Position numbers and translations under genes: made by a program
Notes under the pieces: generated by a model
The model's input: the letters and a program-made list of their open reading frames with translations, nothing else
What the model was told of the DNA's origin: nothing
Databases searched by the model: none
Shown here: positions 6,453-60,420 of the stretch, piece by piece
How positions within the stretch are numbered: the first letter of the stretch is position 1
Layout: the number at the start of each line of letters is the position of its first letter
DNA from: Eledone cirrhosa
Lineage: Eukaryota
Direction of reading: 5' to 3'
Length of the DNA stretch: 64,000 bases
Assembly (NCBI GenBank): GCA_964016885.1
Contig: OZ024744.1
Location: 43,648,001-43,712,000 of the forward strand

Positions 6453-6485
6453 GTGGTCTTTCCCATCTTTCCACTCCTTTTCAAC

Positions 6486-19518: not shown

Positions 19519-19565
19519 TGCCGACAGCCGTTTCGTCCGACCCCATGGTGGGACTTATCAAGGCA
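19519..19565 (-). ncRNA. Hammerhead ribozyme, U3-A8 variant (inverted copy)
   Basis: Reverse complement of 26384-26430. Confidence 0.75.
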
Positions 19566-20484: not shown

Positions 20485-20635
20485 AAATTATTACAAAATC
20501 ATTACAAAATTACCACAAAATCATTACAAAATTATCAAATCATCACAAAATTACCACAAAATCATTACAAAACTATCAAATTATCATAAAATTATCGCAA
20601 AATTATTACAAAATTATCATAAAATTATTGCAAAA
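20485..20635. repeat. ~11-bp AT-rich minisatellite (attacaaaatc-like) in the PLE-A tail; mirror copy ~25312-25462
   Basis: Direct reading. Confidence 0.8.
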
Positions 20636-21574
20636 ATATAACAGGATGAACATTACTGGTGACCGTGTGGGCGCGATATCCATTCTGCCTATGCAGTCCC
20701 CTGCACAGCTCCAGCACGATATCCACTAGGCGTAAGCAGTCATCTGCATAGCTCCAGGCGCAGCTGGTCTTGTTTAGACGTTCATAGATCACCTGGGGTT
20801 CACTATTATCTGCGTGGACTCTCTGGGAGATGTACCTGTGGATCTAATAGCCAGTGGTTGCCGGATGTGGTCCGTTCGATCCTTTAGTTTCAGGGGTTGA
20901 ACGCTTTCGCGATAGACGAGCCTGCTGGTTCTAAGTCCAAGGTTTCGCCACGCATGATGTATTGGTCCACATGCTATATCGTTAAAAAACCAGTGTGGAT
21001 TTGACTGGGGTGGTATATTACGAACTCCAAGTCCACACGCGACTGGTCAAAATCGAAGGGCTGTCCTCTCTTTGTTTGCTGTATGGGTCGGTCCCAGCTT
21101 AGATGGTGGTCGTGTCATCCATATTCCGTCAGCCCTGTATATTCAAGACAGATCAGGGTATGTATTTGCGGGTATGGTCCTGCGTCTACGTTATCCAGAG
21201 GGTCTCGCTTGTGGTATTTTCAAGTTCGCATGTCATCTCCCGGTTAAGACTGCGCATGCTTCGGTGAATCTCAAGCATGGGATCTTAGGGTATCATATTA
21301 CACGGGGTGACCAGCAGAAAATATACATTCTATGCTATCGCGCACGCGCTGGCCTGTGGCTACGACCGTGTCCAGTCTCGGGTAGTAGCAGACAGCAGGT
21401 AGACCAGCTATACACACCCCTGATCAAGGGGCACAACCCCTAACTTATCGAGTGGTCAGACTTCAAGGGAGTCAACTCTCCAAGCCCATTATGTCGACCG
21501 TGGTGAAATACAAAAAAAATTCCTATTAGTAAAGAACTAATCACTGATAATAAAGAACCAGCTCAAATAGGACA

Positions 21575-23974
21575 TTTAGGAGCCCGCCCTATAACCCTCT
21601 GCTCGATAAATTTGAGAGTGACCTTTTGTCTCTCGTCCGGTCTATTAGATATAAAAGAAATAACTATAAGCGTAGCGGCTTCCAAACAAAGTTAGAATCA
21701 CTAGTTAAATCTTTTAAGGACAGAAAGGAGTGTATACTAGTACCCTCGGACAAGACTAGGAATATGTACAACCTGAGCTATGAGGAATACCGCGGCTTCA
21801 TATACAACGAGCTACATAAAAATTATAAAAAAACACTGTAGCCAACCTAGATGAGATTAACAGGGAGGCTAAAGTGATAGTAACGAAGCTAGGATTAGAG
21901 AAATGCACACAACCTTATACCCCCCGACAACCAAGGTTCACACTGAAAAACCATTAGGAGGACTTTGCAAGTAGCCCATCTGTCAGGCTCATTAGCCCCT
22001 CTAAATCTGACATAGGGATTATAAGTAAAAAAATACTAGATGAAGTCATACCGAAAGTTAAAGACAGGATTAGCCTGGACCTATGGGGAAACACTGCAGA
22101 AGTGATAAAGTGGTTCTCAAGCATTACAACCACAAGTCACTACGCTTCATCCAGTTCGATATAGACTCCTACTATACGTCTATATCCCCCATACTACTAA
22201 ATAAGGCGCTCATGTTGGCAATGCGGACGGGCGAACTCGCTAGATCCCAGATTGACATAGTCCTTGCCGCTCGTAAAACAATTATCACATTTGAGGATGA
22301 ATTGTGGACGCGAAAGAACACTCGTAACAATTTCGACATCACTATGGGGTCTAGCGACTCAGCGCAGGTGACAGACCTCGTCGGATTGTACCTGCTCAAG
22401 GAGCTCAACGAGCAGCTCCCACACCTCAGAGGTGGGCTATACCGTGACGACGCATTGCTTACTGTGGACTTTAAACGGCACAACCTAGAAAGAACTAGAA
22501 AGGACCTTTATAAATTCTTCAAGAATTTTAACCTATCAATAACTATGGATAGAAATAATAAGGTAGTCAACTTTCTAGATGCCACACTAGACCTAGATAA
22601 GTTAGAATATGCACCGTACCATAAACCTAACAAAAGGCTGACGTACGTCAATGCCGGCTCCAACCACCCAGGCTCAGTCCTCAAAGCAATAGTTAAGGGA
22701 GTATCTAGTAGGATTAGCGGACTATCTAGCAGCGTGACCGCATTTGAAGCGAACGCGGAATATTACAATAAGGCGCTAGCTGGGTCAGGGCACAAAGATA
22801 AACTCCATTATGTTAAGACAGGCGGCACCACCCCGCCACCCCAGCCCAGCACTGTAATCACGCACAATATGTCCATGGGAGTTGGAGGGAGAGCTAGAAA
22901 GACGAATAGGGACAATAGGAAGTTAGATAAGAACAGCAACACTCGCAACGCAGACACGGACAGGGCCCGCACGCCTGGTAAGCGCTATGCCGCCCCGAGC
23001 AAGTCCAACAGTGAAAACGGGGGACAGAGGCCTAGGAGACTTGAGACCAACGCACATACCACTGGGTGTACAGCAACCACACCTGGTGGAACCAGTAATA
23101 ATATAGACGAAGAGAGGGAAAACTGCATAGGGGATAGGAAATGCAGTGGAAGGAATAGAAGACGTGATAGTACCTTCTTTAACCCGCCCTTCAACTCTAA
23201 TGTTACTACAGACTTCCCCAAATCTTCTTTCTCTTTAATAGATAAGAACTTCCCCCCGGGTAGTAGGTACGGTAGTGTCATCAATAAGAATACTGTCAAG
23301 CTATCGTACTCTACAACCCCTAATCTGGCCTCACACCTAGCTAAGACCAATAAGAGTAAGATCAAAGAGGGACTTAAGGCCATCCGAAATAGTGAACCAC
23401 GCCAGCACACACGACAACACGGGACCAACACACTGAGTGAAAGAGCCAGGGGATATTAGGCAATAGAACCGGTCCCACTAGGCAGCCCCGCGGCCGCTTG
23501 GAGGGACATGCACCCCTGATTGAGGGGCATGTCCCTACTAAAGAGTGTAATTGCAGAAAGAAGGACAAATGCCCACTAGCTGGACACTGCCTTATCAGGA
23601 ACGTGGTATATGCTTGTAACGTAACCACAGGCACGTATACTAAGACGTACGTAGGATCAACCGCTAATGAGTTCAAGACGAGGTTCAACGCCCACCAGAA
23701 TAGCTTCCGTTATGAGAAGCTTAAAAATACCACGTCGTTAGCGGGGCATATACATAGCTTAAAACAAACAAAAACCCCCTACACACTCAGCTGGAGATGC
23801 CTTACTAAGGCTCCTCCATATAGCTCGTTGAGCAGGTGTTGTAGCCTGTGCCTATCTGAATCTCATGCCATAGTATTCTCAGGGCTCAACTTTCTCAACA
23901 GGAGATCAGAAATCTTCTCGTCCTGCCCCCATACCATACTTAGCTCTTTCTTTTTCTTCAGACCGGACACATAG
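21575..23974 (+). pseudogene. PLE-A polyprotein (RT, CxC...CPL linker, GIY-YIG endonuclease), frameshifted
   Basis: Motifs DKTRN, FDIDSYY, MGSSDSAQVTDLVG, YRDD, FLD, SNHP, CNCRKKDKCPLAGHC, VVY...YVGST, CSLCLSE, LNRRSE. Confidence 0.92.
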
Positions 23975-26383
23975 CCATGACACCACCCAGTCCTGCACGT
24001 GGCGGCCCCGCTGGCGTACAGGGTGCTCTGTGGTAACCCCGGCCGCATGGATGCCTCGGCTCCCCGATTGGCGATGGGGACTCTGGTGAGGAACAGACGA
24101 CCCTGTGTCCCACTTGCCAACCTGGGATTGGTGGCAACACTGTTGCTGGGCACACTGGGGCAGCTGATGCCTGCGATGCAGGACATTGTGAGGGCCTGGA
24201 ACCACGTTGACTAATCTGAGAGGGTGCCGTCGGAGATGTATGTCAACAAACTCGAGAACTGCCTAGGGAAACAGTAACAAAACACCCAATATGGCGGCCG
24301 CTCCCTGCCTATAGCAACTCACCCCTACCCCCTCCCCTAGTAAACCCCCGCCCAAATAGATGACCCCCCCCCATTCTTTTGAGCTGGTTCTTTATTATCA
24401 GTGATTAGTTCTTTACTAATAGGAATTTTTTTTGTATTTCACCACGGTCGACATAATGGGCTTGGAGAGTTGACTCCCTTGAAGTCTGACCACTCGATAA
24501 GTTAGGGGTTGTGCCCCTTGATCAGGGGTGTGTATAGCTGGTCTACCTGCTGTCTGCTACTACCCGAGACTGGACACGGTCGTAGCCACAGGCCAGCGCG
24601 TGCGCGATAGCATAGAATGTATATTTTCTGCTGGTCACCCCGTGTAATATGATACCCTAAGATTCCATGCTTGAGATTCACCGAAGCATGCGCAGTCTTA
24701 ACCGGGAGATGACATGCGAACTTGAAAATACCACAAGCGAGACCCTCTGGATAACGTAGACGCAGGACCATACCCGCAAATACATACCCTGATCTGTCTT
24801 GAATATACAGGGCTGACGGAATATGGATAGCACGACCACCATCTAAGCTGAGAACGACCCATACATCAAACAAAGAGAGGACAGCCCTTCGATTTTGACC
24901 AGTCGCGTGTGGACTTGGAGTTCGTAATATACCACCCCAGTCAAATCCACACTGGTTTTTTAACGATATAGCATGTGGACCAATACATCATGCGTGGCGA
25001 AACCTTGGACTTAGAACCAGCAGGCTCGTCTATCGCGAAAGCGTTCAACCCCTGAAACTAAAGGATCGAACGGACCACATCCGGCAACCACTGGCTATTA
25101 GATCCACAGGTACATCTCCCAGAGAGTCCACGCAGATAATAGTGAACCCCAGGTGATCTATGAACGTCTAAACAAGACCAGCTGCGCCTGGAGCTATGCA
25201 GATGACTGCTTACGCCTAGTGGATATCGTGCCTGGAGCTGTGCAGGGGACTGCATAGGCAGAATGGATATCGCGCCCACACGGTCACCAGTAATGTTCAT
25301 CCTGTTATATTTTTGCAATAATTTTATGATAATTTTGTAATAATTTTGCGATAATTTTATGATAATTTGATGGTTTTGTAATGATTTTGTGGTAATTTTG
25401 TGATGATTTGATAATTTTGTAATGATTTTGTGGTAATTTTGTAATGATTTTGTAATAATTTTTAATCCTGTATCAATAATTTTAGAATGTTTTTTTTGTG
25501 ATAATACAGGGTTAGATCACGGAATCTACCTTGTACCTTCTTAAGGATACATTTTATGATTATTGTCTTTTTGCTTATGTATTTTCTTAGTTACCACTTT
25601 CTTTAATCTTGCCCAACTTGATAAACTCCTTGAATTGCTCCCTAATTAAATTGCTTAAATTGCTTAGATTATTGTACCTATTATGCCTAAGTTGCATCTG
25701 TTGAAGCAGCCCTTTGAAAATTCCTCGGATATCCCAAATACCGTTATTTTTAATTTTTAACTTTTAATGTATAATTTTCCTCAATTCGTTTTTATATTTA
25801 TCCTCAAAGGCTCTCTAAAATTTTAATTCTTCGAAGGGTCTCTCGGAAGAAGTTCCTATTGGAAATAGTAAAGGGGCCTTTTCTGAGAGATTTATGGAAG
25901 GCTCTCTGAATTAACCTCTAATTGATTAGTTTCTTTCAACCTAGTTTTCAATTCAGTTTTCTGAATTTTGTAAACGTGATCTCGGGGGAAGAAGGTTTTT
26001 TTCTTTGGGAAAAATTTTTTTTCTCTAGAAGAAATTTCATAGGAACTCTATATATTTTTTAGGGAAACTTTATATTTTTATTTTCTTATTTTATTAGCCT
26101 CTTAATTTTCTTCTAGACTAATAGGTGTATTGGAGCCTGTAAGCTTTATGCACTCATTGAGGGATTTTCTGAGGTGCTTCTACGAGACCCCAAGTCTCTT
26201 GGTTTTATGTTGATGCGTGAATTATATATTTTTGTCTAATTTTTAAACTTCAATCCCTGACCCCGACAACTAATATAAAAGAGCCCCCCTTAAAGCGGAG
26301 ATGCTGATGTATACAACAATTTCAAACTGCTAGCCTTGAGTGATACGTTGATGTAAACAATGATCTTGCAATCACATGTTATA

Positions 26384-26430
26384 TGCCTTGATAAGTCCCA
26401 CCATGGGGTCGGACGAAACGGCTGTCGGCA
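26384..26430 (+). ncRNA. Type I hammerhead ribozyme with U3-A8 core variant
   Basis: UGCC-UUGAUAA-GUCC...GGAC-GAAAC-GGCU-GUC^GGCA: stems I, II and III pair. Confidence 0.78.
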
Positions 26431-26474
26431 ATAAACTTGTTATAATATCATAATAGTTCCTTTGTTCTTTTTCA

Positions 26475-26540
<66 letters not shown>

Positions 26541-31596: not shown

Positions 31597-31855
31597 GAGG
31601 GTGTGGTAAGATACCAGGTGGACCATAACGCTCTGCCATTGGGGTCCTGATTCTTTACCTATATATATATATACGCATAAAATATATTAATAAATGGAAA
31701 CTTTATTTATAAAACCATATTTATTTTATTATATATTTTTCAAGGGCGACCAGGGCAAATTATGGTGCGCTTTCATCATATAAAATACAGATTTGTTTTA
31801 TAAATAAATATTGACATACCCGGAAAAAAAATCTCAACAAATTAAATATAACCTC

Positions 31856-31930
<75 letters not shown>

Positions 31931-41784: not shown

Positions 41785-42612
41785 GAAGTGGTTACACAAC
41801 AGTTAGTTCACCATACCGAGGATAATTGTTTCACCTTAGCGGATCCTCAGTTCGTAAACGGAACTCGAAGGACAACGACACGAACACGCATGCGCAGAAA
41901 CCGTCTCTTCACACAGGCAATACTAAAAAGCGTGCAGGAGGTGTAAGGGATATAACTGCAAAAGTCCGAAAAATTTCTAATTGATAAGAAAATTAGGATG
42001 TTTTTGTGATTCAATCCGGATCTTTGTTGTTATGTAAGAGGTGTTTCGAGACGTGTGGACAACGTGGGAAGAACTCATTTCTCGTGTTTAGGCAATCACT
42101 ATTGCATAATCTCTTTAGAATATTTATTCGTTCATCAATACATAGTCCTCACGACGGATTTCCCCTTGCGTATGGCTTTGACTTAGTGATGGCTTTTCAT
42201 TGAATGGAGTAGTCTATACTTGAGTCCTTGAGGGACCATACGTGGCTCGCGAGTTTTTGTGGATGAACGTCTGTCCGGGTACCTAAAGGTCGACTGGAGG
42301 TTCAGGAAGCGTTCCTTAAATCGGCCGTCATACCCACATAAGACTTGACCTCCTGTGGTTGGTTTGGTCGGTTGGAAGTGACCACAGCTTCATAAATTAC
42401 AGCGGGTGTGTTGCATTGCTGTTGAAGAGGACAAGCTTCGAGCTTACGGCAAGAGCACCCTGGTGGGGTGTTACTCTTAGGGCTGTTGGTGATGTGAGCC
42501 TTCATGATCTTAGCGCAGGAGTATCCTAGTTTTACTTTGTGTCGGTTAAAGATGGAGCGGTATTTAGTACCTATGGGAAAGTGTCTATCTAAGATGGCTA
42601 GAAATTTTTTGA
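41785..42612 (-). mobile_element. PLE 3' fragment (thumb end, linker, GIY-YIG, tail with degenerate HHR at 41817-41854)
   Basis: CSCRKLEACPLQQQC, VIY...YVGMT; CUGAGGA-UCC...GG-U-GAAAC on the minus strand. Confidence 0.8.
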
Positions 42613-42648
<36 letters not shown>

Positions 42649-42677
42649 ATTATGTAATAAACAACATAAGGCAATTA

Positions 42678-42737
42678 TTCCATTTACCAGTGGTTTCTTA
42701 AAAGCAAAATGTTTTGCTTTCAATCATCTGAACGGAA
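42678..42737 (-). ncRNA. Hammerhead, core mutated (CAGAUGA); mirror of 53781-53840
   Basis: Reverse complement of the 53781 HHR with a U4A change. Confidence 0.65.
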
Positions 42738-43022
42738 AAAGCTGGTTTGTTTATTGAATTTGGATTACAAAACCAAAAATGCAATCTATATGAAAGTGAG
42801 GCTGGAGAAGGGAGAAGGAAAGGAAAAATAAAATAAAACAACGCATGCAAACACACACACAAAAAAACCCCAAAAGCATACTTACACACACATACATATA
42901 TACATATATATATGTACGCATACATATATACATATACACATATATATAAAACGTACACTTACCTACACAAACACATATATACACACATATACACATACAT
43001 ACATTAATACATATACACACAT

Positions 43023-43092
<70 letters not shown>

Positions 43093-43119
43093 GCACATAT
43101 CCACACACACATATATATA

Positions 43120-43163
<44 letters not shown>

Positions 43164-43360
43164 TATACACATATACACACATACGCATACACACACATAC
43201 ACATGTGTGTGTACAAGCATACACATACACAAACATAGCCATACACACACACATATATATACACATACATACATTCACACGAACATACAAAACGTACATA
43301 CATACACATACATGAATGCACTCCTCTACATATTCACACACGCAAATAAATATAAGAAAA

Positions 43361-43406
<46 letters not shown>

Positions 43407-43446
43407 GATATTAAATAAATGGAAACTATATTTATAAAACCATATT

Positions 43447-43512
43447 TATTTCATTATATATATTTCAGGGATATCATATTAACAATATGTTATGCCTTCT
43501 TCAGACAAAATA
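43447..43512 (-). ncRNA. Hammerhead (inverted copy of 47206-47271)
   Basis: Reverse complement read directly. Confidence 0.75.
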
Positions 43513-43705
43513 CAATATAGACAGTTTTATAAATAAATAGATTTGACATACCGTTCAACATCGACTTGTATTTGAAAAGTTGATTTGGCAGTGAAAAATT
43601 GTAAACAGAAAGAAAGAAAGAAAGAAGGAAAGAAAGAAAGAAAACGAAGAAAAAATGCATGCAACTAACTACAGAGATGTATGTATATATGTGTGTTTAC
43701 GTATA

Positions 43706-43742
<37 letters not shown>

Positions 43743-43769
43743 TTATATTTTTGTATATATATATATATA

Positions 43770-43824
<55 letters not shown>

Positions 43825-46800
43825 ATATGTGTGTGTGTGTGTATATAATTACATATCTGTATATGCGTGTGTGTGTGTATATAATTACATATCTGAATTT
43901 GAAAACGATATAATTTCTATCATACAAGGAGTCAAATTCAAGAGAAACTTCAAAGGCCAGGAATATCTGAAAGGCATTAAGGATAATATTGAGAGCTTAG
44001 AGAAAACTGAGAAGATCTTGGTAAAATCTGACAAGACCAACAACCTCTATGGAGTGCAGAAAGATATGTATAATGGCCTCATACTGAAAGAACTGAGGAA
44101 AAAGTACAAGGTAGCAGATAAGGCCGAGCTTGAGAAAATGAATGTTGAAGCATCTTGTATAATGCACGAGTTGGAAATTGAGAACAGAACACAACCTTTC
44201 GTGCCCAGGAAACCGAAGATCAATATGAAAGATCACAAAAGGAATTTTGAAAATGACTTGCCAGTTAGATTGATCGCACCATCAAAATCGGACCTGGGTA
44301 AATTAAGCAAAAACATTCTTGACAGGGTGATACAGCAAATTAAAAACTTGGATTGTTTACCTAACCTGAGCTTGTGGAAGGGAACTGGAGAGGTTGTTGA
44401 GTGGTTTAAGCAAATTAAATATAACAATAATAATAAGTTTATTCAACTTGATATTGCTAACTATTATTCTTCTATTACCCCTAATCTACTAAATAAGGCA
44501 CTAAATTACGCATTCAAACATACATACCTAACTAGCAATGAAATGCACATTATATTATCGGCTAGGAAAACATTGATAGAATTTAATGACCAACTATGGA
44601 CCAGAGCAGATAGAGATAGCAATTTTGACATTACTATGGGATCATCCGACTCAGCTCAGGTAACTGACCTTGTGGGCTTATTTTTAATCAATTCGCTGCA
44701 TAGGAAATTACCTGGTACTACCGGAGGTTTATATAGAGATGACATGCTTTTACTTATTGATAATAATAACTCTGAACTAAATAGAAAAAGAAAACAAATT
44801 ACACAATTTTTTAATTACTTTAATCTAAAAATAGAAATTGAGAATAACCATAGAATAGTCAATTTCCTAGATATAACATTAAATCTCAACACATGTCTTC
44901 ACTATCCATTTCACAAGTTGAATGAAAACTTAAACTATGTCAGCTTTAACTCTAACCACCCCAGATCTGTTAAAAATACTATAGTAAACTCTGTTCAAAA
45001 ACGTATTTCTAGAATCTCGTCTAATAGAAAGATTTTCGACGAAAAAGCCCAGTACTACAATGAAGCGTTAGCTAGAGCAGGATATAGTGATAAAATTATG
45101 TACATAGATAATGATAGACAAACTAAACAAAATAACAACTATTTGAATTACGGCCACAACCTTAACAACTATAATAGAAAGCATTACAATAATTCCAAAA
45201 GCCAAAAAAGAAATAGAACTAGGAACATAATATGGTCCCCCCCCCTTTCTCACTAAACATTAAAACCCACATCGCTAAACTATTTTTTAAAGCTCTTGAT
45301 AATCGCTTCCCTAGAACACATAGGTATCACTCAATTTTCAATAGACATACTATAAAATTAACCTACTCATCCACCAAAAATTTAGCACAAAATATTAATA
45401 GAATAAATAATAGGAACTTAAAACCTAGCGATAATAGCATAAATAATATACAGGTTAACAAATGTAACTGTAGAGATAGATCTAAATGTCCGTTAAATAA
45501 CAACTGCTTAGTTAAAAATATAATATACAACTGTAATGTTAAAACAGACTCTAATTCTTTTAACTACGTTGGTTCCACATCGACGGAATTTAAACTTCGC
45601 TATAATAACCACAAGAATTCTTGCACAGATCCAAGCAAAAAATCTTCAACAGCACTATCAGGCGTACTCTGGCAACTTAGGCAAGATAACGTTAGATATT
45701 CGACGGCTTGGAATATAGTCTCAAGAGGTATTCCTTTTAATTCATCCTCTGAGACATGTGACCTCTGCGCGGAGGAGATATTCTTTATACTAAAATCTAA
45801 AAATTCCCTTAATCTACGGACAAATTTATTCAGTTGCTGCAAACATAGATTGAACTCAACTTTTAAATATAAATTTAAATTTAAAATGTAGTATATTTAG
45901 TTTGATTTGTAATTATTTATGAAACTAGCCGATAAATCTTTCGATTTCTTCTTTTTATTCTTCTTTTTATTTTAATTTTAAACATTCTTCATGAAAAATT
46001 AAACTACCCTTAAACTACCCTAAAAGTTGATGCTCCAAATATATCGAATAAATGTTACACTAGATAAACTTCTATATTAAATATAAGAACATATGTAGAC
46101 CAAATGGGTATCCTAAACTTTTGAAATGATTTCTGCTAGACGTGATTTGGTAAATAATTTTTAGTTTTATCTGTTTTCGACTCTGATGCTTATAATGAAC
46201 TTGGCAATATATTGTCAATTAATTTTGAAGGGTTGATCTTTGTGGTCGATTTGCGTGGCATACTATGTTTTTATTTTTATTATTTTAATATTTTTTAATA
46301 TTTTTAATATTTTAATTTTTAATATGTAACATTTTTTAGTTTTCTGTTTTATTTATTTATTATTATTTTTTGTTTTTGTTTTTGTTTCTGATATTTTTAT
46401 TAATATATTGAAATCTGTTCTCTATTTCTGCTTGATAGATAATCATGTAGAGTAAAGACAAGAATAGTATTGTTAAAATTAATATAGACTCTATATATAT
46501 GTGTATATATACACATATATGTATACTTAAATTTTTATAGCACAATGAGAATGTTCTCCGTGTGAAATAGGAGTTTGCAGGGTTGATCACGTAAATTCAC
46601 ATCGATGTTTGTAGTTATCATATAAACATATGAATTTTTAAAACTAGACATAAGATCATTACTTTTCACACATTATAGATACGTGTCTCATTCATGAATA
46701 CTGATATTTACATTATAGTGCCTGTTTTTTATACGAACTAATATTTCTACATTGAAACATAGGGTTTTTAAATTCTGCCTCGCCTATGTCTGGTTACTTT

Positions 46801-47205
46801 TCATTTTTTCACTCTATATAACGGCTGGTTTCTCTCCTAACCACATATATCTCCCTTACATTAATACTAGAGCTAAATAAATAAATAAATAAATAAATGT
46901 ATCATTGATACGTCATTCAACGGATGTTCAACTACCTACTTTTCTCTATATATATCTATCTCTATCTATTTCCTCTCCCTATATATCTCTCTCTGTTTCT
47001 TTACATGAAGTTCTTCTCTTTATCTATCTTTCCATCTCTGTATTTAGTTGCATGCATTTCTTCTTTTTCTTCGTTTTCTTTCTTTCTTTCCTTCTTTCTT
47101 TCTTTCTTTCTGTTTACAATTTTTCACTGCCAAATCAACTTTTCAAATACAAGTCGATGTTGAACGGTATGTCAAATCTATTTATTTATAAAACTGTCTA
47201 TATTG

Positions 47206-47271
47206 TATTTTGTCTGAAGAAGGCATAACATATTGTTAATATGATATCCCTGAAATATATATAATGAAATA
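47206..47271 (+). ncRNA. Type I hammerhead ribozyme in the PLE-B tail
   Basis: UAUUUUGU-CUGAAGA-AGG...CCU-GAAAUAUAUAUA^AUGAAAUA; 8-bp stem I. Confidence 0.8.
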
Positions 47272-47662
47272 AATATGGTTTTATAAATATAGTTTCCATT
47301 TATTTAATATCGTAAATATACTCCAAATACTTGTTGAGTGCTTTTATATCAGTTATAAATATTTACTAGTTGTAACCCAACAATTTAAATATAACTTTCC
47401 ATAGATATATATATATATATATTTTAAAAATTTTTGACAGCGATACATGACCCAGCTAACAGGACAGACACGCGTGGTAAGTAATACACACAAAAAAGCA
47501 CGTATACATACGTACGAAATAGTAAACACATACACACTCTCATACATAAATATACATAAACAAATACAAAAACACATACATACACATACATACACAAACA
47601 CGCACACGTATACATATTAAACACACACACATATGTATATGTAATTATATACACACACACAC

Positions 47663-47717
<55 letters not shown>

Positions 47718-47744
47718 TATATATATATATATACAAAAATATAA

Positions 47745-47811
<67 letters not shown>

Positions 47812-47976
47812 TATACGTAAACACACATATATACATACATAGCTAAACAATTATACACATGCAAATACGTATATATCAAAAACACGCACAACCAAAAACA
47901 AATACACACACACACACACACATACATAAAAAAAACACACATTTATAAACACACACACACATATACATACATACAT

Positions 47977-48043
<67 letters not shown>

Positions 48044-48209
48044 TATACATACACACACATACACACATACGTACATATACACATGTGCATACACATACAC
48101 ACACACATATACATGTGTGTATGTGTAAAACTCAGTATTAGAAAAGACAAATGAACCTTACATAAACGTATATATAGTAGTAAGGTAATAAAGCAACATA
48201 AGGCAATTA

Positions 48210-48269
48210 TTCCATTCACCAGAGGTTTCTTAAAAGCAAAAAATGTTTCCTTCAGTCTTCAGAATGAAA
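48210..48269 (-). ncRNA. Degenerate hammerhead in the PLE-C tail (GUG triplet)
   Basis: UUUCAUU-CUGAAGA-...-GAAACCUCUGGUG-AAUGGAA; paralog of the 53781 HHR. Confidence 0.6.
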
Positions 48270-48361
48270 AAAAGTGAAAGAAACCTGGTTTATCCACATA
48301 TACATACATATACACACACAAATATACATATATATACACATACACAAACACACACATACAA

Positions 48362-48396
<35 letters not shown>

Positions 48397-49990
48397 TATA
48401 TACATACACATATACATATATATATATATACACACATATATATACACACAAAAATACATACACATACACATAGGTATGTGAAGGGCAAAACAAAAAGAAT
48501 ATATGGGGGGGGGGGGGGGGGCTAAGAGGAGGTAAAAATATAAGGGGAGGTAAGAGAGAAACAAAATGTTAAATATACAAGAGTACAGAAGGTAGAATCA
48601 GCAAAATAAAAACCGTAGCAGAAGTAAAGAGTAGAGAAGGAGTTCAAGGCGGTTGATTTATCATAGGAGTGTCAATCCAGTTACAGATCAGATGCGATTT
48701 CAGATGAGGACAGCATCTGAAGATCTCAGTCTTTGAGTTAAGGCAAGCGGAAGTGGCTCTCTAGTTTAGCAAAATCCTATACTTTTCTGTGGTACACAAA
48801 GAACAATTCTTTGTGCCCCTTTGGTACTCTCTCGAATGGTTTAATATAGACCAATCAATAGAGTACGGGATATTACTATCCTTGAGATCCCATACCTTAC
48901 TTGCGAGGGCCGTTGATGTTCGTTTATCAGAGTGCTTAAAAGAAGCGACATGTGAGTAAAATCTGGTTTTAAACCTGTCCTGGGTCATACCGACATATCG
49001 CTCACTCCTGGCTGGCTGGTTGTTGATAACTGGCGTTATCTTAGCCTCATAAACGACAGATTTTGTGTTACATTTACCCTGCAATGGGCATTCATCCGGC
49101 TTCCTGCAACTGCATCCTGGATTTATCCTCGTACGGTTTGAACTGGTGATTTTGGACTTCATGGATGGGCAACAAGAGTAGCTGATCTTAACTACATTCC
49201 TATTAAAAATCTTATAATATCTATGAATAGGAGGAAAACGTTTGTCTAATAGTTCAAGGAATTTCCTTCCTACATTAGTTTTGACATTTAGAGAGAAGGG
49301 GGGTGTGAACCAAATAATCTTCATTTTCCTGTTATTATGGTTAGTTTTATGGGGGGGGGGGGAGTAGGTAAATAAGAAATATTTTCTGTAAAACCGCTGT
49401 TCTTAAGGGCTTTATTATAATAAGGGGCGGCTTTATTAAAAATGTCTATAAACGAAGATAAGGTAGAAATCCTACGGCTAATGTTAGGAATAAGATTATT
49501 AAAAACTATAGGGGGATGGCAAGACTCTTTGTGTATATACCTAAGATTTTCATTAGGTTTATGATAGGGTTTAAAAGAGGCAGTAAGTAGATCAAGATTA
49601 ATATCAAGAAAGTTAGCATTAGTAAGGTTCGTATCTATAGTAATTTTAAGGTTAAGATTAGCAAAAGTACTAATTAAATCTTTACGGAATTTATCAAGAT
49701 TATGGCCGTTGGTGGTATGAGAAACTGCTAATCCGTCATCACGGTATAAACCGATATTATGGGACGGAAATTTCTCTTTGAGTGTGTGGAGAAGGAATAA
49801 TCCTACTAAGTCGCACACATCTTTTTTTCTCTCTTACCTCCCCTTATATTTTTACCTCCTCTTAGCCCCCCCCCCCGCATATATTCTTTTTGTTTTGCCC
49901 TTCACATACCTATGTGTATGTGTATGTATTTTTGTGTGTATATATATGTGTGTATATATATATATATATATGTATATGTGTATGTATATA

Positions 49991-50021
<31 letters not shown>

Positions 50022-50113
50022 TTGTATGTGTGTGTTTGTGTATGTGTATATATATGTATATTTGTGTGTGTATAGGTATGTATATGTGGATAAACCAGGT
50101 TTTTTTCACTTTT

Positions 50114-50173
50114 TTTCATTCTGAAGACTGAAGGAAACATTTTTTGCTTTTAAGAAACCTCTGGTGAATGGAA
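50114..50173 (+). ncRNA. Degenerate hammerhead (mirror of 48210-48269)
   Basis: Same motif on the plus strand. Confidence 0.6.
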
Positions 50174-50784
50174 TAATTGCCTTATGTTGCTTTATTACCT
50201 TACTACTATATATACGTTTATGTAAGGTTCATTTGTCTTTTCTAATACTGAGTTTTACACATACACACATGTATATGTGTGTGTGTATGTGTATGCACAT
50301 GTGTATATGTACGTATGTGTGTATGTGTGTGTATGTATATATATGTATATATATATATATATATATACATGTATATGTATGTATGTATGTATATGTGTGT
50401 GTGTGTTTATAAATTTTTTGTTATGTATGTGTGTGTGTGGTTGTGTGTGTGTGTGTGTGTGTGTGTATTTGTTTTTGGTTGTGCGTGTTTTTGATATATA
50501 CGTATATATATATATGTATATGTGTGTGTGTGTGTATATAATTACATATACATATGTGTGTGTGTTTAATATGTATACGTGTGCGTGTTTGTGTATGTAT
50601 GTGTATGTATGTGTTTTTGTATTTGTTTATGTATATTTATGTATGAGAGTGTGTATGTGTTTACTATTTCGAACGTATGTATACGTGCTTTTTTGTGTGT
50701 ATTACTTACCACGCGTGTCTGTCCTGTTAGCTGGGTCATGTATCGCTGTCAAAAATTTTTAATATATATATATATATATATATA

Positions 50785-53138
50785 TGGAAAGTTATATTTA
50801 AATTGTTGGGTTACAACTAGTAAATATTTATAACTGATATAAAAGCACTCGACAAGTATTTGGAGTATATTTACAATATTAAATAAATGGAAACTATATT
50901 TATAAAACCATATTTATTTCATTATATATATTTCAGGGATATCATATTAACAATATGCTATGCCTTCCTCAAAATACAATATAAACAGTTTTATAGATAA
51001 ATAGATTCGACATACCGTAACAACATCGACTTGTATTTGAAAAAGTTGAATTGGCAGTGAAAAAATTGTACACAGAGAGAAAGAAAGAGAGAAAAAAGGA
51101 AAGAAAGACAGAAAACGAAGAAAAAGAAGAAAAAGAAGAAATGCATGGAACAAAATAGAGAGACGGAAAGATAGATAAAGAGAAGAACTTCATGTAAAGA
51201 AACAGAGAGAGATATATATATATAGAGAGAGAGAGGAAATAGAGATAGATACATATATATAGAAAACTAGGTAGTGGGACGTCTGTTGAGTAAACGTATC
51301 AATGATACATTTATTTATTTATTTATTTAGCTCTAGTATTAATGTAAGGGAGATATATGGAGAGAAACCAGCTGTTATATATATATAGAAAAAATATATA
51401 GAGAGAAAAAATTTAAAAATAACCAGACATAGGCGAGGCGTAAAAACCCTATGTTTTAATGTAGAGGTATTATTATGTATAAAAACCAGCCACTATATTG
51501 TAAATATCAGTATTCCTGAATGAGACATGTATCCATAATGTGTGAAAATTAATGATCTTTTGTTTAGTTTTTAAAAAAAAAATTCATATGTTTATGTGAT
51601 AACTACAAACATCTATGTGAATTTACATGATCAACTCTGCAAACCCTAAGTTCACGGAAAACATTCTCATTTTGGTATAAAAATTTAAGTATACATATAT
51701 GTGTATATATATATACACACAAATATATATAGAGTCAATATTACTATTCCTGTCTTTACTCTACAAGATTATCTATCAAGCAGAAATAGAGAGCAGATTT
51801 CAATATACTAATAAAAATATATATCAGAAACAAAACTAAAAAATAACAATAATAATAATAAGTAATAATAAAATAGAAAACTAAAAAATATTACGAAAGA
51901 ATATTACATATTAAAAATATTACATATTAAAAATATTAAAAATAAAAATATTAGAAAATACTACAATAATAAAAATAAAAATAAACCACAAAGATCAACC
52001 CTTCAAAATTAATTGACAATATATTGCCAAGTTCATTATAAGCATCAGAGTCGAAAAACAGATAAAGCCAAAAATTATCTATCAAATCGCATCTAGCAAA
52101 GATCATTTCAAAAAGTTTAGGATGCCCATTTGGTCTACATGTGTTCTTATATTTAATATAGAAGTTTATCTAGTGTAACGTTTATTCGAAATATTTGGAG
52201 CATCAACTTTTAGGGTAGCTTAATTTTTCATGAAGAATGTTTAAATAAAAATAAAAATAAAAATAAAAATAAAAATAAAAAGAATAAAAAGAAGAAATCA
52301 AAGATTTATCGGCTAGTTTCCCATATAATTATAAATCAAACTAAATATACTACATTTTAAATTTAAATTTATATTTAAACGTTGAGTTTAATCTATGTTT
52401 GCAGCAACTGAATAAATTTGTCCGTAGATTAAGGGAATTTTTAGATTTTAGTATAAAGAATATCTCCTCTGCGCAGAGGTCACATGTCTCAGAGGATGAA
52501 TTAAAAGGAATCCCTCTTGAGACTATATTCCAAGCCGTCGAATATCTAACGTTATCTAGCTTAAGTTGCCAGAGTACGCCTGATAGTGCCGTTGAAAATT
52601 TTTTGCTTGGATCTGTGCAAGAATTCTTGTGGTTATTATAGCGAAGTTTAAATTCCGTCGATGTGGAACCGACGTAGTTAAAAGAATTAGAGTCAGTATT
52701 AACATTACAATTGTATACTATATTTTTAACTAAGCAGTTGTTATTTAACGGACATTTAGATCTATCCCTACAGTTACATTTGTTAACTTGTATATTATTT
52801 ATGCTATTATCACTAGGTTTTAAGTTCCTATTATTTATTCTGTTAATATTTTGTGCTAAATTTTTGGTGGATGAGTAGGTTAATTTTATTGTATGTCTAT
52901 TGAAAATTGAGTGATACCTATGTGTTCTAGGGAAGCGATTATCAAGAGCTTTAAAAAATAGTTTAGCGATGTGGGTTTTAATGTTTAGTGAGAAAGGGGG
53001 GGGGAACCATATTATGTTCCTAGTTCTATTTCTTTTTTGGCCTTTGGAATTATTGTAATGCTTTCTATTATAGTAATGCTTTCTATTATAGTAATGCTTT
53101 CTATTATAGTAATGCTTATTGTAATGCTTACTATTATA
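50785..53138 (-). mobile_element. Penelope-like element B, copy 2 (shorter: linker + GIY-YIG + tail)
   Basis: ORF 52350-53162 is nearly identical to copy 1 C-terminus; tail is diverged; HHR core lost at 50915-50976. Confidence 0.92.
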
Positions 53139-53157
53139 GCAAATAAATATAAGAAAA

Positions 53158-53193
<36 letters not shown>

Positions 53194-53453
53194 TTTTCTT
53201 ATATTTATTTGCGTGTGTGAATATGTAGAGGAGTGCATTCATGTATGTGTATGTATGTACGTTTTGTATGTTCGTGTGAATGTATGTATGTGTATATATA
53301 TGTGTGTGTGTATGGCTATGTTTGTGTATGTGTATGCTTGTACACACACATGTGTATGTGTGTGTATGTGTATGTGTGTATATGTGTATATATATGTATA
53401 TATATATATATATACATGTACATATATATATGTGTGTGTGGATATGTGTGCGC

Positions 53454-53499
<46 letters not shown>

Positions 53500-53780
53500 G
53501 TGTATATGTATTAATGTATGTATGTGTATATGTGTGTATATATGTGTTTGTGTAGGTAAGTGTACGTTTTATATATATGTGTATATGTATATATGTATGC
53601 GTACATATATATATGTATATATGTATGTGTGTGTAAGTATGCTTTTGGGTTTTTTTTGTGTGTGTGTTTGCATGCGTTGTTTTATTTTATTTTTCCTTTC
53701 CTTCTCCCTTCTCCGGCCTCACTTTCATATAGATTGCATTTTTGGTTTTGTAATCCAAATTCAATAAACATACCAGCTTT

Positions 53781-53840
53781 TTCCGTTCTGATGATTGAAA
53801 GCAAAACCTTGTGCTTTTAAGAAACCACTGGTAAATGGAA
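53781..53840 (+). ncRNA. Canonical type I hammerhead ribozyme
   Basis: UUCCGUU-CUGAUGA-UUGAAAGCA...UGCUUUUAA-GAAA-CC-ACU-GG-UA^AAUGGAA; all three stems pair. Confidence 0.85.
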
Positions 53841-53880
53841 TAATTGCCTTATGTTGTTTATTACATAATAATAATAATTA

Positions 53881-53942
53881 AGCTCTGTTGCCTACATAGA
53901 GCACTCTTTTTTCCTGGACTTTTCCGATGGAATTACTTCATT

Positions 53943-54028
<86 letters not shown>

Positions 54029-57000
54029 GGAGCGGAGGCACACGAGTTAGGATATATATATATGAAAACAGGGACAAAGAGACGTTGTGAGGAAGAAAAA
54101 TATATATGTTTTCCTTTTTTTGTCTCTCTCTCTCTCTTATCTGGATTAGAGAATGATTAAAACGGAATGTTTTACTCTGTGTGGAGTGTTAAGGTATTAG
54201 TTGATTTATTTATTATTTAACGATGGCATTTATTTATCTATTTATATATTTAATTATTGTCTATTACCGGTTTCTGCATTTATATGCATTATCAAATGAT
54301 AGTGAAATGTATTAGTGTGGTGTCGCACATGTTAAACAGAAGGTGCAGAAAGAATAATGTTATATACAAACAAGGTTTAAGAAGTGAAAGTGAAAAGGAA
54401 CAAGGAAAAAAAAAACGTGCATAATGTGGAACGTAAAAAATCAGTGTGGAAGAAAAGTTAATGTTATTTACAAGCACAGTCATTGAAGTTAAGCAGTTCA
54501 AAATGTGTTAATATCGCAAGAGTGTTTAGTTGAACCATGGTTCCGTGAAGGGGCAAATGGTGGACTGTGGTTTGATATGATTTCCCTTTTTAGAGAGTTA
54601 ATATGCAGGGGAAGCAATTCTTGCTGGGTGATATTTAATTTATTTAAGAAAAAGGATTAGGTAGGGTGTGAGGGAGGTAACTCTTGTAAATATTTGATGG
54701 TTTGTTGCAGTTTTAGAAAGGTCCAAATTTCAGGGCATTGAGTACTGGTTGAAATTTATTAATGAAATGTGTTTCCTTATTGGTGCGTTGGATGAAAGTA
54801 GCGTTGTCTATGAATTTGTAAATGGGGAAAATTTTAAAGTTTGGAAGTTGGTTGAGAGCACAATTGGCGATATGTTCACTAATTGCAATCTTTCTGTATT
54901 CCTGTATTTTAATTTGTGATTTATGGACGGTCAGTCGTTGACGGAGGCTGTTTTTTGTCTGTCCTATATAGTGCTCTAGACAACCTGAGCAAGTCAAAAC
55001 ATAGATAAGGTTTTCAGATGCACATGTAAAGTTGTGTTTAACTGTGAAACGTTGTCCTTGTTTAAAATGGAATGTTGAACCTTCTATTAGATTTATGCAT
55101 ATGCCACAGTTGGGCCTTCCTCATTTTGTTACTGTAGGGTTTATTGTGAAGGTTTGTTGGATTTTGGCTTGTGTGAGGATGTTTTTTATGGATTTGGGTT
55201 GTCTTTTACTCTTTATGATGTTGTGTGTTTGGAGGATATTGTTCATTCTTGGAGGATATTGTTCATTCTTGGGTCTCTTTTTAGTAAAGGAATGTTCTGG
55301 AGGATGGTATCGAATGCCTCATTGTTGAGGGGGTTGTGTGTGGAGATGTATGGTAGAGTTTTTTGTTGCGGTTCACTCCTGGGTTTGGGGTGTCTGAGTT
55401 CCTGGATGTCTAGTTTTAGGGCACGTTGGAATCCGTTGGTTATTAGGGATGGTGGGTAGTTTCTTCTGATAAGGGTGTTTTTTAATTCTTCTTGTCGTGT
55501 GTAGCATGTGTATTTATCTGAAACTATTGTGCAGATCCTTCTGACTAGGTTATAAGGAATTGCCAATTTGGTGTGTCTAGGGTGGCACGAGTTGAATGGA
55601 AGGTATTGTTTGGAGTCTGTGGGTTTGTAGTATATGTCTGTTTCAATTTTGTTGCTTGTTTTCTTGTTGAGGATGTCGAAGAAAGGGCTGTCATCCATTG
55701 TGAATTGTAAGTTAGTGTTGAGTCCATTCAGAAGGGTTTTAAACTCAAACAGTCTATCTATACTTTCATGCCAGAGGATGAAGCAGTCGTCCAGATATCT
55801 CGTCCAGTTCTTTTCTATGTGTTGGTAGAATTGGTTGCCGTATTTGTCTAGAGCTTTGCGGTAGAGAATGGTTTCCACGTATCCCATGACAAGGTTGGCG
55901 TATGAGGGGGCCACTTTTGTGCCCATGGCAGTCCCAGATTTCTGTCTGTAGTATTTGGCATTGAATTCGAAGAAATTATTTTCCAAGATGAATTTGAGTC
56001 CCTCCAACACAAATTCTTTAGGGATGCGCTGTGGAAGTTCACTGGGGAAGCTTTTCATCCAGAATTGTATTGCCTCTATACCTAGGTTGTGTGGGATATT
56101 GGAATATATATTGATGACATCAAAGGTTACTAGTAGGGTATGTCCATTATTGAGTGTTGTTGGGAGGTGGTTGAGCATGTCAAGGTCGTCCCTTATGAAG
56201 CTTTTTATGTGTTTTAGGAAAGGTTTAAGCAGAATATCTAGAAAGTTGCCTAGGCTGTGTGTTTCACATGTAGTGCCTGCTATTATGGGTCTTAATTTAA
56301 CGTCATCAGGAGGGGCTATATTGATGTAAACGTCTGTGGCTTGCTTGCAGGCCCTGCCTATTACTTCGCCTTTGTGTGTCTTGGGGATACGTCCTACACC
56401 CTCCTACACCCTCCTATACGCTCCACACAACTATCACACGGACTCCCAAGCAACAAATATAGTAATAGAGAAACATCAGCTACAAGATAGATACTACAAC
56501 TTCCCTCCAACCAGGAGAAACCATAACCTCCCCCCCCACACACACTTACAACCCCCCTAATATCCCCATACAACAAACCCACAACCATCATTACTTCCAA
56601 CATAGAACCCAAAATACACAACTACCACACATGTCACACAGGGCCTCACAACCACACACCAGCTATAAGGAAACCCTAATCTACCCTCCGCCACTTACCA
56701 CACCCTACTATAACAACACCAGCAGGGGACAATACAACCACACGAGACACCCTAACCACTACAACCACCATAGCTACACACCATATAACAGCAACAACAG
56801 GATTCAATATGAACACACAAGACAACCCTACTACAACTACCACCAAGTCTACACACCCTACAACAACAGCAGTACTCAACACAACCACACGTTACAACCC
56901 AACTTCAACAACCACCACAACTTCACACCCTATAACTACGTCCTTCAAATCTACACACCCTACAACAACATCAGCAGGGCTCAATAAAACGACACGATAC

Positions 57001-60000
57001 AACCTAAACTCAACAACCACCACAGCTACACACCATCTTACAACAACAGCAGGAGCCAACACAACTATAAGAAACATCCAAACTTCAACAGCCATCACAA
57101 CTTCCGTAATCATTTTTTAGACACAGCACACAGACACAGGATTACAAGATAACACAAAACACACAGGAGACACAAAATACAATAAAAATTGTCAATTTAA
57201 CCTCCAAAGAATTAACAACAGACCAAATCAACATACTCTCCAAAGGTCTAAAATTTACACCAACTCCCCAACAACCAAACTACCCCTAAATGAAGGAAGA
57301 TATTGCAGAATTCTGTAGAAAACTAAGACTCAGCGAACAACTATGCAACAAATACAATGAGGATGACTCAATAGCCAGAAATAGAAGCAACTACACCCCA
57401 CCAAAAGGCAAGAACAAGTTCCTCGATCAATTCTGCGAACACATTACTAATTACCCATACCACCACCTACACAGACATAAACAAAAACCTAACCTAAGCA
57501 AAAAAGAATGGAATGGTCTTAACAGTCTAAAAAACGACAAAACCCTAACAATCAAAGAGGCAGATAAAGGGAGTGCAGTAGTCCTTATCTAGAAAACCAA
57601 ACATATTATGAAAAGGTCCAACACTACACACAACAGAAAATAATGAGAAACCTAAAATCCCTAACAACCCTTTACAAAGAAGGCCTTACAGACAAGGAAT
57701 ACAACTACATCACCAATTTCAAAAGCAGAACCAGCCTCTTCTACGGTATCCCAAAGACACACAAAAGCGAAGTAATAGGCAAGGCCTGCAAGCAAGCCAC
57801 AGACGTTTATATCAATATAGCCCCTCCTGACGACCTTAAATTAAGACCCATAATAGCATGCACCACATGTGAAACCCACCGCCTAAGCAACTTCCTAGAT
57901 ATTCTCCTTAAACATTTCCTAAAACATAAAAAGCTTCATAAGGGACGACCTTGACATGCTCAACCACCTCCCAACAACACTCAATAACGAACATACCCTA
58001 CTAGTAACCTTTGATGTCATCAATTTATATTCCACTATCCCACACAACCTAGGTATAGAGACAATACAATTCTGGATGGAAATTTTCCCTAGTGAACTCC
58101 CACAGCGCATCCCTAAAGAATTTGTGTTGGAGGGACTCAAATTCATCTTGGAAAACAATTTCTTCGAATTCAATGCCAAATACTACAGACAGAAATCTGG
58201 GACTGCCATGGGCACGAGAGTGGCCCCCTCATACGCCAACATTGTCATGGGATATTTGGAAACCACTGTCTACCGCAAAGTTCTAGACAAATACGGCAAC
58301 CACTTCTACTAACACATAGAAAAGAACTGGAAGAGATATCTGGACGACTGCTTCATCCTCTGGCATGAAAGTACAGATAGACTGTTTCAAACAGTCTATC
58401 TGTACTTTCATGCCACTTTCATACTTTCTGAATGGACTCAACACAAACTTACAATTCACAATGGATTACAGCCATGAACAACTCCCTTTCCGCGACATCT
58501 TCATCAAGAAAACAAGCAACAAAATAGAAACAGACATATACTACAAACCCACAGACTCCAAACAATACCTTGCATTCAACTCGTGCCACCCTAGACACAC
58601 CAAAATGGCAATTCCTTATAACCTAGCCAGAAGGATCTGCACAATAGTTTCAGATAAATACACAGGCTACACACGACTAGAAGAAATAAAAAACACACTT
58701 ATCAGCAGAAACTACCCACCATCCCTAATCACCAATGGATTCCAACGTGCCCTAAAACTAGACATCCAGGAACTCAGACACCCCAAACCCAGGAGTGAGC
58801 CGCAACAAAAAACTCTACCATACATCTCCACACACAACCCCCTCAACAATGAGGCATTCGATACCATCCTCCAGAACATTCCTTTACTAAAAAGAGACCC
58901 AAGAATGAACAATATCCTCCAAACACACAACATCATAAAGAGCAAAAGACAACCCAAATCCATAAAAAACATCCTCACACAAGCCAAAATCCAACAAACC
59001 TTCACAATAAACCCATCAGTAACAAAATGCGGAAGGCCCAACTGTGGCATATGCATAAATCTAATAGAAGGTTCAACATTCCATTTTAAACAAGGACAAC
59101 GTTTCACAGTTAAACACAACTTTACATGTGCATCTGAAAACCTTATCTATGTTTTGACTTGCTAGAGCACTATATAGGACAGACAAAAAACAGCCTCCGT
59201 CAAAGTATGACCGTCCATAAATCACAAATTAAAATACAGGAATACAGAAAGATTGCATTTAGTGAAAATATCGCCAATTGTGCTCTCAACCAACTTCCAA
59301 ACTTTAAAATTTTCTCCATTTACAAATTCATAGACAACGCTACTTTCATCCAACGCACCAATAAGGAAACACATTTCATTAATAAATTTCAACCACTACT
59401 CAATGCCCTGAAATTCGGACCTTTCTAAAACTGCAACAAACCATCAAACATTTACAAGAGTTACCTCCCTCACACCCTACCTAATCCTTTTTCTTAAATA
59501 AATTAAATATCACCCAGCAAGAATTGCTTCCCCTGCATATTAACTCTCTAAAAAGGGAAATCATATCAAACCACAGTCCACCATTTGCCCCCTTCACGGA
59601 ACCATGGTTCAACTAAACACTCTTGCGATATTAACACATTTTGAACTGCTTAACTTCAATGACTGTGCTTGTAAATAACATTAACTTTTCTTCCACATTG
59701 ACTTTTTACGTTCCACATTATGCACGTTTTTTTTTCCTTGTTCCTTTTCACTTTCACTTCTTAAACCTTGTTTGTATATAACATTATTCTTTCTGCACCT
59801 TCTGTTTAACATGTGCGACACCACACTAATACATTTCACTATCATTTGATAATGCATATAAATGCTGAAACCGGTAATAGACAATAATTAAATATATAAA
59901 TAGATAAATAAATGCCATCGTTAAATAATAAATAAATCATCTAAGACCTTAACACTTCACACAGAGTAAAACATTTCGTTTTAATCCTTTTCTAACCCAG

Positions 60001-60072
60001 AAAAGAGAGAGAGAGAGACAAAGTGAAGGAAAAAAAAATTTTTCTTCCTCATAATCGTCTCTTTCTCCCTGT

Positions 60073-60080
<8 letters not shown>
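53881..60080 (+). mobile_element. Penelope-like element D (Neptune-like) with ~2.3 kb inverted duplication of its 3' half
   Basis: Plus copy 56391-60080: LSKGLKFTPTP, EADKGS, YGIPKTHK, LRPII, GTAMG, YLDD, CGRPNCGIC, LIY...YIGQT. Arm 54060-56390 is the reverse complement of 57745-60080. Confidence 0.92.
56700..57115 (+). repeat. ~75-nt coding-like tandem repeat (Asn/Tyr/His-rich) in the PLE-D 5' region
   Basis: TPYYNNTSRGQYNHTRHPNHYNHHSY / TPYNSNNRIQYEHTRQPYYNYHQVY / TPYNNSSTQHNHTLQPNFNNHHNF... Confidence 0.75.
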
Positions 60081-60120
<40 letters not shown>

Positions 60121-60420
60121 TCATCATCATCATCATCATCACCGTTTATATATATATGTATATATATATATACACATTATATATATATATATATATGATC
60201 ATAGTTTTTAATTGAGTGGATTAAATTGTGGGTGGAATGGTTAACACTTGGTTAACATTTGTCAGGTAGACCAAGGGTGTGGGTTCGTGTCCTATGTACG
60301 GCACTGCTCATCCTTTTTCACATTCAGAGGGTTTTTTTTAAAATCCCAACTAACAGACGAACTTATATAGTCAAATACGGTGTAAGCACATGTTACTAAC
60401 TATTATATATATATAATAGT

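Follow-up and report, generated by a model that had tools for sequence, protein, structure and literature searches.

How does one retroelement family come to occupy the same simple repeat in both arms of another element's inverted tail? The question is raised by a 64-kb stretch of the Eledone cirrhosa genome (43.648-43.712 Mb of contig OZ024744.1 in the 3.0-Gb assembly GCA_964016885.1 that we searched; hereafter the window), in which two Penelope-like elements (PLEs) are nested. One of them, PLE-C, is present as two inverted arms, and the TA tract that joins the distal (X) and proximal (Y) parts of its tail, here called T2, is split in each arm by a copy of the other, PLE-B. The two PLE-B copies are not sisters, and it is likely (probability about 0.8) that each entered its T2 tract later and on its own, the tract being long and readily cut. 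We regard T2 as a hot TA tract rather than as the object of dedicated PLE-on-PLE targeting, and the locus as explained by known PLE behaviour together with a hot tract; no new kind of element is required.

Structure of the nested inverted pair

Self-alignment reproduced the 11-kb nested inverted structure described in an initial annotation of this DNA, with inverted arms at 42642-43392/53162-53876, 45168-47927/50269-53074 and 47705-48569/49817-50656. The arms flank a remnant of the PLE-C open reading frame (ORF; about 48569-49815, minus strand), which holds the end of the reverse transcriptase (RT), the linker and the GIY-YIG endonuclease and forms the spacer of the pair. The proximal tail of the left arm (47423-48568, minus strand) comprises Y, which starts at 47423, an inner hammerhead-like module (48185-48272) and the 3' untranslated region (3'UTR), and that of the right arm (49817-50761, plus strand) carries a deletion of ~184 nucleotides (nt) in Y. 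X lies at 42645-43364 (minus strand) and 53190-53876 (plus strand); on the right it continues to the true PLE-C 3' end at 53941 through a 60-nt tail extension (53881-53941) that is found on this arm only. The hammerhead-like motif of X is intact in the right arm, and in the left (~42670-42742) it has a core change private to that arm. The two hammerhead-like modules of the PLE-C tail (42636-42740 and 48169-48272) are 83-85% alike, and TA follows each of them; the distal module may be the captured end of a related element. In all eight two-armed PLE-C loci with both ends visible the tail extension is confined to one arm. The inversion point varies among unlinked PLE-C loci, which indicates that inverted PLE-C pairs arise anew with each insertion.

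The T2 tracts lie at 43365-43405 (left arm, X side), 47405-47421 (left arm, Y side), 50762-50784 (right arm, Y side) and 53162-53188 (right arm, X side), and the claim that PLE-B splits the same tract in each arm is upheld. In other PLE-C copies X, (TA)n and Y are continuous and form an ordinary tail, so PLE-B interrupts a pre-existing PLE-C tail. The left PLE-B (plus strand) has an ORF (43896-45891) for a 5'-truncated RT and a GIY-YIG endonuclease, with Hydra-clade motifs and one frameshift (~45235), followed by a 3'UTR and pseudo-long terminal repeat (pLTR; 45892-47404) with a hammerhead-like motif (47214-47283) and a ~90-nt tail extension. Upstream lies its own inverted arm (43406-43679, minus strand), which copies the tail segment 47033-47312 minus the last ~90 nt, with 0 substitutions at 190 sites. 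The right PLE-B (50785-53074, minus strand) belongs to another lineage and retains an open endonuclease frame and the 3'UTR. The 5' ends are indeed unequal, as had been noticed, the left copy starting at 43896 and the right one at the equivalent of ~45168.

Independence of the two PLE-B copies

Divergence was counted as substitutions outside microsatellites. The PLE-C arms differ at 13 of 961 sites (1.4%), and the two PLE-B copies at 18/662 (2.7%) in the endonuclease region, 80/711 (11.3%) in the 3'UTR and 9/231 (3.9%) in the last 370 nt. The greater divergence of the PLE-B tails, first judged by eye, is thus borne out for the 3'UTR (Fisher p about 1e-18 against the PLE-C arms). The ORF differences comprise 13 synonymous and 5 nonsynonymous changes in 215 codons (P=1.7e-5 under neutrality; ratio of nonsynonymous to synonymous rates, dN/dS, about 0.12), a predominance of synonymous changes that is expected if the copies descend from different active masters.

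The phylogeny that the initial annotation had called for was run on copies sampled at 70 PLE-B 3' ends of one contig, C1 (the first 30 listed and 40 of the next 48), of which eight were long enough to join the two window copies in a tree of 10 long copies. Sisterhood of the window copies was rejected (approximately unbiased (AU) test, p=8.6e-58), and the copy nearest to each of them was an unlinked one, not the same for both; the non-sister result was repeated in a tree of 38 short PLE-B 3' ends (10 shorter rows omitted). Since the copies are not sisters, they were inserted independently. The long copies form a ladder in the tree, with 3'UTRs that have diverged at a much higher rate than either the ORF or the last 370 nt; several PLE-B lineages appear to have been active together.

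The paralogous locus

The region 44.68-44.80 Mb of the same contig is an inverted match, at 97-99% identity, to at least 122 kb that include the window (43.60-43.72 Mb), and represents either a duplication or an uncollapsed haplotype located ~1 Mb away. Its flanks are 0.4-1.2% apart from those of the window, and the two copies have the PLE-C inversion junction in common. In the paralog, both T2 tracts hold short PLE-B inserts of other sequence types, one of which is reversed so that its 3' end points to X, and a Y tract is filled by about 5 kb of another family. As the PLE-C insertion is common to both copies and the inserts differ, five insertions postdate the split. The 22 flank tracts aligned between window and paralog revealed no copy-specific insertion, as compared with 3 of about 10 tracts (p=0.024), though the copies do differ in two large blocks elsewhere. 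Stretch pairs sampled at 43.3, 43.5, 43.76, 43.85 and 44.0 Mb gave no collinear match, for which offset drift could also be the reason.

Junctions and probable arm-to-arm conversion

Between the inverted arm and the body of the left PLE-B lies an inverted copy of the local flank (43680-43895, minus strand), ~215 nt of Y taken from 230-430 nt past the insertion site (source ~47636-47840), which has a short repeated start and was likely templated at integration. The 5' junction of the right PLE-B (53075-53161) consists of short tandem duplications (~21 nt) followed by ~24 nt copied in inverted form from the adjoining end of X. Among 38 random PLE-B inserts no flank copy was found, the lone match being PLE-B-subfamily sequence that also occurs in another insert. 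We infer that the flank copies arose in place, when a double-strand break was repaired by fold-back or from a template, and such flank-templated junctions lend independent support to local insertion of PLE-B. They may resemble products of polymerase-theta repair. Duplication of the whole target tract gave a weak signal (rho 0.41, p=0.02, n=32).

Arms of palindromes undergo gene conversion. Two variants, the first at the edge of T2 and the second about 250 nt from it, are common to both X arms of the window and missing in both paralog arms, while a left/right-specific variant is kept at the outer end of X; the T2-edge variant was seen in 0 of 175 motif occurrences in the fetched loci (some of them fetched twice). 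A short arm-to-arm conversion, traced by these two markers only, has likely homogenised X beside T2. As in other palindromes, derived variants are common to both arms of one copy; here the tract spans ~250 nt, is defined by two markers and lies inside a retroelement pair.

Occupancy of T2 and of other TA tracts

Arms of PLE-C were collected in three samples, which differ in age and subfamily besides tract length. A Y-anchored pattern returned 36 arms of a young subfamily (four at the locus pair, 30 others examined, two outside the examined set), a variant of it 28 arms of a second subfamily, and an X-anchored pattern 647 arms, of which 90 of the 98 on contig C1, the source of the PLE-B ends as well, were examined. 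These 90 were classed by script as 67 empty, one with PLE-B (the same locus as L106), one with another insert and 21 without a match to Y; inspection by eye resolved the 21 into 12 empty arms with diverged Y, one foreign insert and eight truncated or unclear arms, which were dropped, and 81 new arms were left after exclusions. Tract lengths were taken from empty arms only, and in three occupied arms (L048, L065 and L119) X was not seen past the insert. The random background comprised 174 TA tracts in twenty 10-kb stretches at fixed positions.

PLE-B occupies T2 in 6/30 arms of the young subfamily (median empty tract TA11.5), where two other families fill a further 4/30, in 2/28 arms of the second subfamily (median TA7) and in none of the 81 further arms (median TA4 among the 67 script-classed empty ones). 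Its recurrence in long-tract arms and absence from short-tract arms indicate that occupancy follows tract length and subfamily. Any family was found at T2 in 12 of 58 arms, as against 4/174 random tracts for any of the three families and 1/174 for PLE-B. The initial annotation held that other TA tracts of the tail are unused, which is true of the present locus and fails family-wide: by eye, the other four tail tracts of the 58 arms hold PLE-B in 0/53, 4/48, 1/42 and 0/32 cases, and 9 or 10 PLE-B inserts occupy other tail tracts of the 81 arms. Two more TA-inserting families with inverted ends (E and F; loci L048, L073, L057, L071 and L032/L033 of the paralog) use the same PLE-C-tail tracts.

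Two local causes of the high occupancy were considered. That palindromes act as break-prone hot spots was rejected, since only 2/20 T2 tracts of the 10 other two-armed loci are filled, none by PLE-B. A PLE-B-rich region of the contig is not supported: 13 other stretches have 32 TA tracts, all free of PLE-B, and the 22 flank tracts showed no copy-specific insertion; a control set around other PLE-C copies is biased, two of its six loci having been picked for carrying PLE-B.

Alternative explanations

A single PLE-B insertion, duplicated with the arms or copied from arm to arm and later eroded by deletion, would explain the mirror orientation of the copies in the window, and the two variants common to the window X arms and missing from the paralog do point to local conversion beside T2; the rejection of sisterhood, the signature of purifying selection between the copies and a divergence of PLE-B that is 2 to 8 times that of the surrounding PLE-C arms leave this history with very little credence. 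Conversion, one of three options in the initial annotation, thus fails to explain PLE-B and is likely only for the short stretch of PLE-C arm beside T2. Another of these options was a chimeric unit of PLE-C and antisense PLE-B mobilised as one RNA, which PLE-B 3' ends adjoining Y at other loci might suggest and the two similar hammerhead modules of the PLE-C tail might echo as an older capture. A single RNA would however yield sister PLE-B copies, the paralog has the same PLE-C insertion with other PLE-B inserts, and the inserts compared at T2 are unlike in length, junction and lineage, which makes the chimera scarcely believable. Two independent insertions, the remaining option, are what the non-sister copies and their chiefly synonymous differences support. 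That the palindrome is an assembly artefact would be in keeping with the failure of short-read contigs to bridge the locus, but is very improbable given that the arms are separated by substitutions and indels, that the paralog repeats the inversion junction and one left/right-specific variant with different inserts, and that ten other PLE-C loci are two-armed, each with its own junctions.

A different rival proposes that PLE-B recognises a specific sequence or structure at T2 (A-run, TA tract, T-run) and so targets PLE-C. It draws on the excess of PLE-B at T2 (8/58) over other tail tracts (5/175) and random tracts (1/174), on the four filled arms out of four at the locus pair and on a T-run after the tract at 13/66 PLE-B 3' ends as compared with 43/704 background ends. 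Many T-runs are nonetheless interruptions within imperfect TA arrays, an ATT boundary is not significantly enriched (21/66 vs 197/815, p=0.18), and none of the 81 further arms has PLE-B at T2 in spite of the inserts in their other tracts. Only 2/66 random PLE-B ends, from the 70 sampled ends on which the flank-context test was based, lie within PLE-C-family tails; two other families use T2 (4/58 arms); and both orientations occur there, eight toward Y and four toward X (p=0.39), so that the fixed orientation initially proposed is not sustained. Sequence-specific targeting of one element by another would place most insertions at a single site of one host element and in a fixed orientation. These results do not show that pattern, and we consider such recognition unlikely and do not read the locus as dedicated targeting of one PLE by another.

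Several observations nevertheless weigh against separate integrations into a tract that is merely hot. T2 occupancy is far above a per-base model (0.05-0.3% for a 25-nt tract), and length leaves the excess unexplained; within the same arms T2 is preferred to the other tail tracts (p=0.004). Four of four arms are filled at the locus pair (with 12 inverted pairs, P about 0.02 that two are hit doubly), and the 10 other two-armed PLE-C loci have PLE-B in 0/20 T2 tracts. The dependence on length comes from samples that differ also in age and subfamily, with lengths read from empty arms. The public runs consist of short-read contigs or reduced-representation reads; the contigs aligned to 47100-53100 bridged nothing, and the right PLE-B 5' junction was without read coverage. 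A stronger proposal, which we advance only tentatively and hold to be rather unlikely, is that Hydra endonucleases cut the long A-run/TA/T-run tract of the young subfamily tens of times as often as TA tracts of equal length, the junctions recording two-ended integration and flank-templated repair. If true, one retroelement would create preferred landing sites for others, and a series of substrates on which PLE target choice can be tested would be at hand.

Proposed history of the locus and its implications

In the reading we prefer, independent integration into a hot tract, PLE-C integrated as two head-to-head 3'-end copies, one with and one without the extension, probably by reverse transcription primed at the two ends of a broken TA tract, and every tail tract is thereby duplicated in mirror image. 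The locus was then duplicated, or is present as two haplotypes, about 1 Mb apart. PLE-B of different lineages entered T2 four times, two per copy (independently, as shown above, and presumably in this order), and a third family entered another tail tract of the paralog. T2 was presumably hot mainly at about (TA)10 or more, in the young subfamily and at loci open to endonucleases, length alone being insufficient. The flank copies would be traces of repair on the spot, by fold-back or from a template, and conversion between the arms would have homogenised X beside T2 over a short distance.

It follows that TA-targeting PLEs can hit one homologous tract repeatedly, here four times in two locus copies under about 1% apart, and repeated hits on the same tract make the presence or absence of such insertions an unsafe guide to common ancestry. 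As targets, TA tracts differ greatly from one another, and the length series of T2 provides natural substrates for the study of microsatellite choice by PLEs. Two-ended integration is consistent with the one-sided tails and with the flank-templated junctions.

Family identity of PLE-B and PLE-C

Judged by motifs in their translations, PLE-B and PLE-C are Penelope-like elements of Hydra-clade type. In PLE-B the GIY-YIG endonuclease is C-terminal to the RT. The RWK-type N-terminal motif reads RWR in three natural full-length PLE-B starts and is truncated away in the window copies; the DKG to DKT change is present as SDKT in the left PLE-B ORF. The region of both motifs is missing from the PLE-C remnant, and they were read in PLE-B only. 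The CxCX5C linker is CNCRDRSKC in PLE-B and CSCRKPDEC in PLE-C, the CxxC motif CDLC and CSLC, and the CxH motif CKH and CPH, respectively. Neither element has a cysteine pair between the GIY and YIG equivalents (no CCHH). Membership in Neptune/Nematis was rejected, as CCHH with the CX2-5CxxC linker is absent from both and present in the neighbouring pair D (see below). Pfam matched one of seven ORF fragments, weakly (GIY-YIG, in a related ORF of the window), and none of the PLE-B fragments. Pattern search and folding identified hammerhead-like cores with stems in the sense tails of both elements, for which Rfam returned only microsatellite noise.

The PLE-C ends adjoin TA in the arms inspected, as do 66 of the 70 sampled PLE-B 3' ends, the other four being tandem pLTR-ORF joints. 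An exact 30-mer of the PLE-B 3' end occurs 2,793 times in the assembly, and the inverted-arm start motif is present within the fetched stretch in 38 of the sampled ends.

Neighbouring elements

Elements are stacked at one TA site over 41800-60198: a truncated Hydra-type PLE (A), which ends at 42614, the PLE-C pair with its PLE-B inserts, and a further inverted pair (D). The left target tract of PLE-C (42615-42643) adjoins the 5'-truncated A, and the right one (53943-54022) is also the left edge of D, a Neptune-type pair (53942-60198) with arms 92% alike and a CCHH motif plus CxxC linker. Another inverted PLE pair (19468-26481) has arms of 2.1 kb that are 99% alike, with a Hydra-like RT in the spacer between them; the 14-kb block that holds it is not present in the paralog. 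A short hairpin insert between TA tracts (31660-31882) belongs to a PLE-B-related family (78% alike) that recurs at other loci. At 3-9685 a GC-rich element is directly duplicated (92-95% alike), in a block that differs in the paralog.

Comparison with known systems

Literature searches, with subscription papers outside their coverage, turned up no description of PLEs nesting repeatedly at a single tract; the available parts of PMC13282606 and bioRxiv 10.64898/2026.07.22.740005 contain nothing on it, and the passages of PMC8557442 at hand mention neither nesting nor an uneven use of TA tracts. According to those passages, Hydra-clade families have a C-terminal GIY-YIG without CCHH, the RW motif, DKT, CxCX5C and CxxC with CxH, and insert into (TA)n (PMC8557442). 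PLE-B and PLE-C share the GIY-YIG without CCHH, the CxCX5C and CxxC/CxH motifs and (TA)n insertion, with RW and DKT seen in PLE-B, and have a candidate hammerhead-like motif in the tail, as in the clade. They differ in their long, microsatellite-rich tails, PLE-B measuring ~3.8 kb with its tail as compared with generally <3 kb in the clade. Inverted second copies and tail extensions are described for PLEs in the same source, and PLE-B and PLE-C likewise have an inverted partner arm and a one-ended extension; the extensions are however ~60 nt (PLE-C) and 84-92 nt (PLE-B) instead of 30-40 bp, and in the present PLE-C copy the extension-bearing arm has no ORF left, unlike the general architecture.

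In vitro, a purified PLE (anole Poseidon, PAc; PMC11167929) cuts AT-rich DNA and extends both of its strands, and the tail is defined by two sites on the RNA at which reverse transcription starts. PAc belongs to a different clade, and its two-strand extension fits the two-ended priming of the inverted pairs proposed here; its ATT cut preference is, as noted, not significantly enriched at the PLE-B tract ends. MuTAnT Mutator elements, as far as the consulted part of PMC4486113 describes them, also target TA tracts, but are DNA transposons of a plant host.

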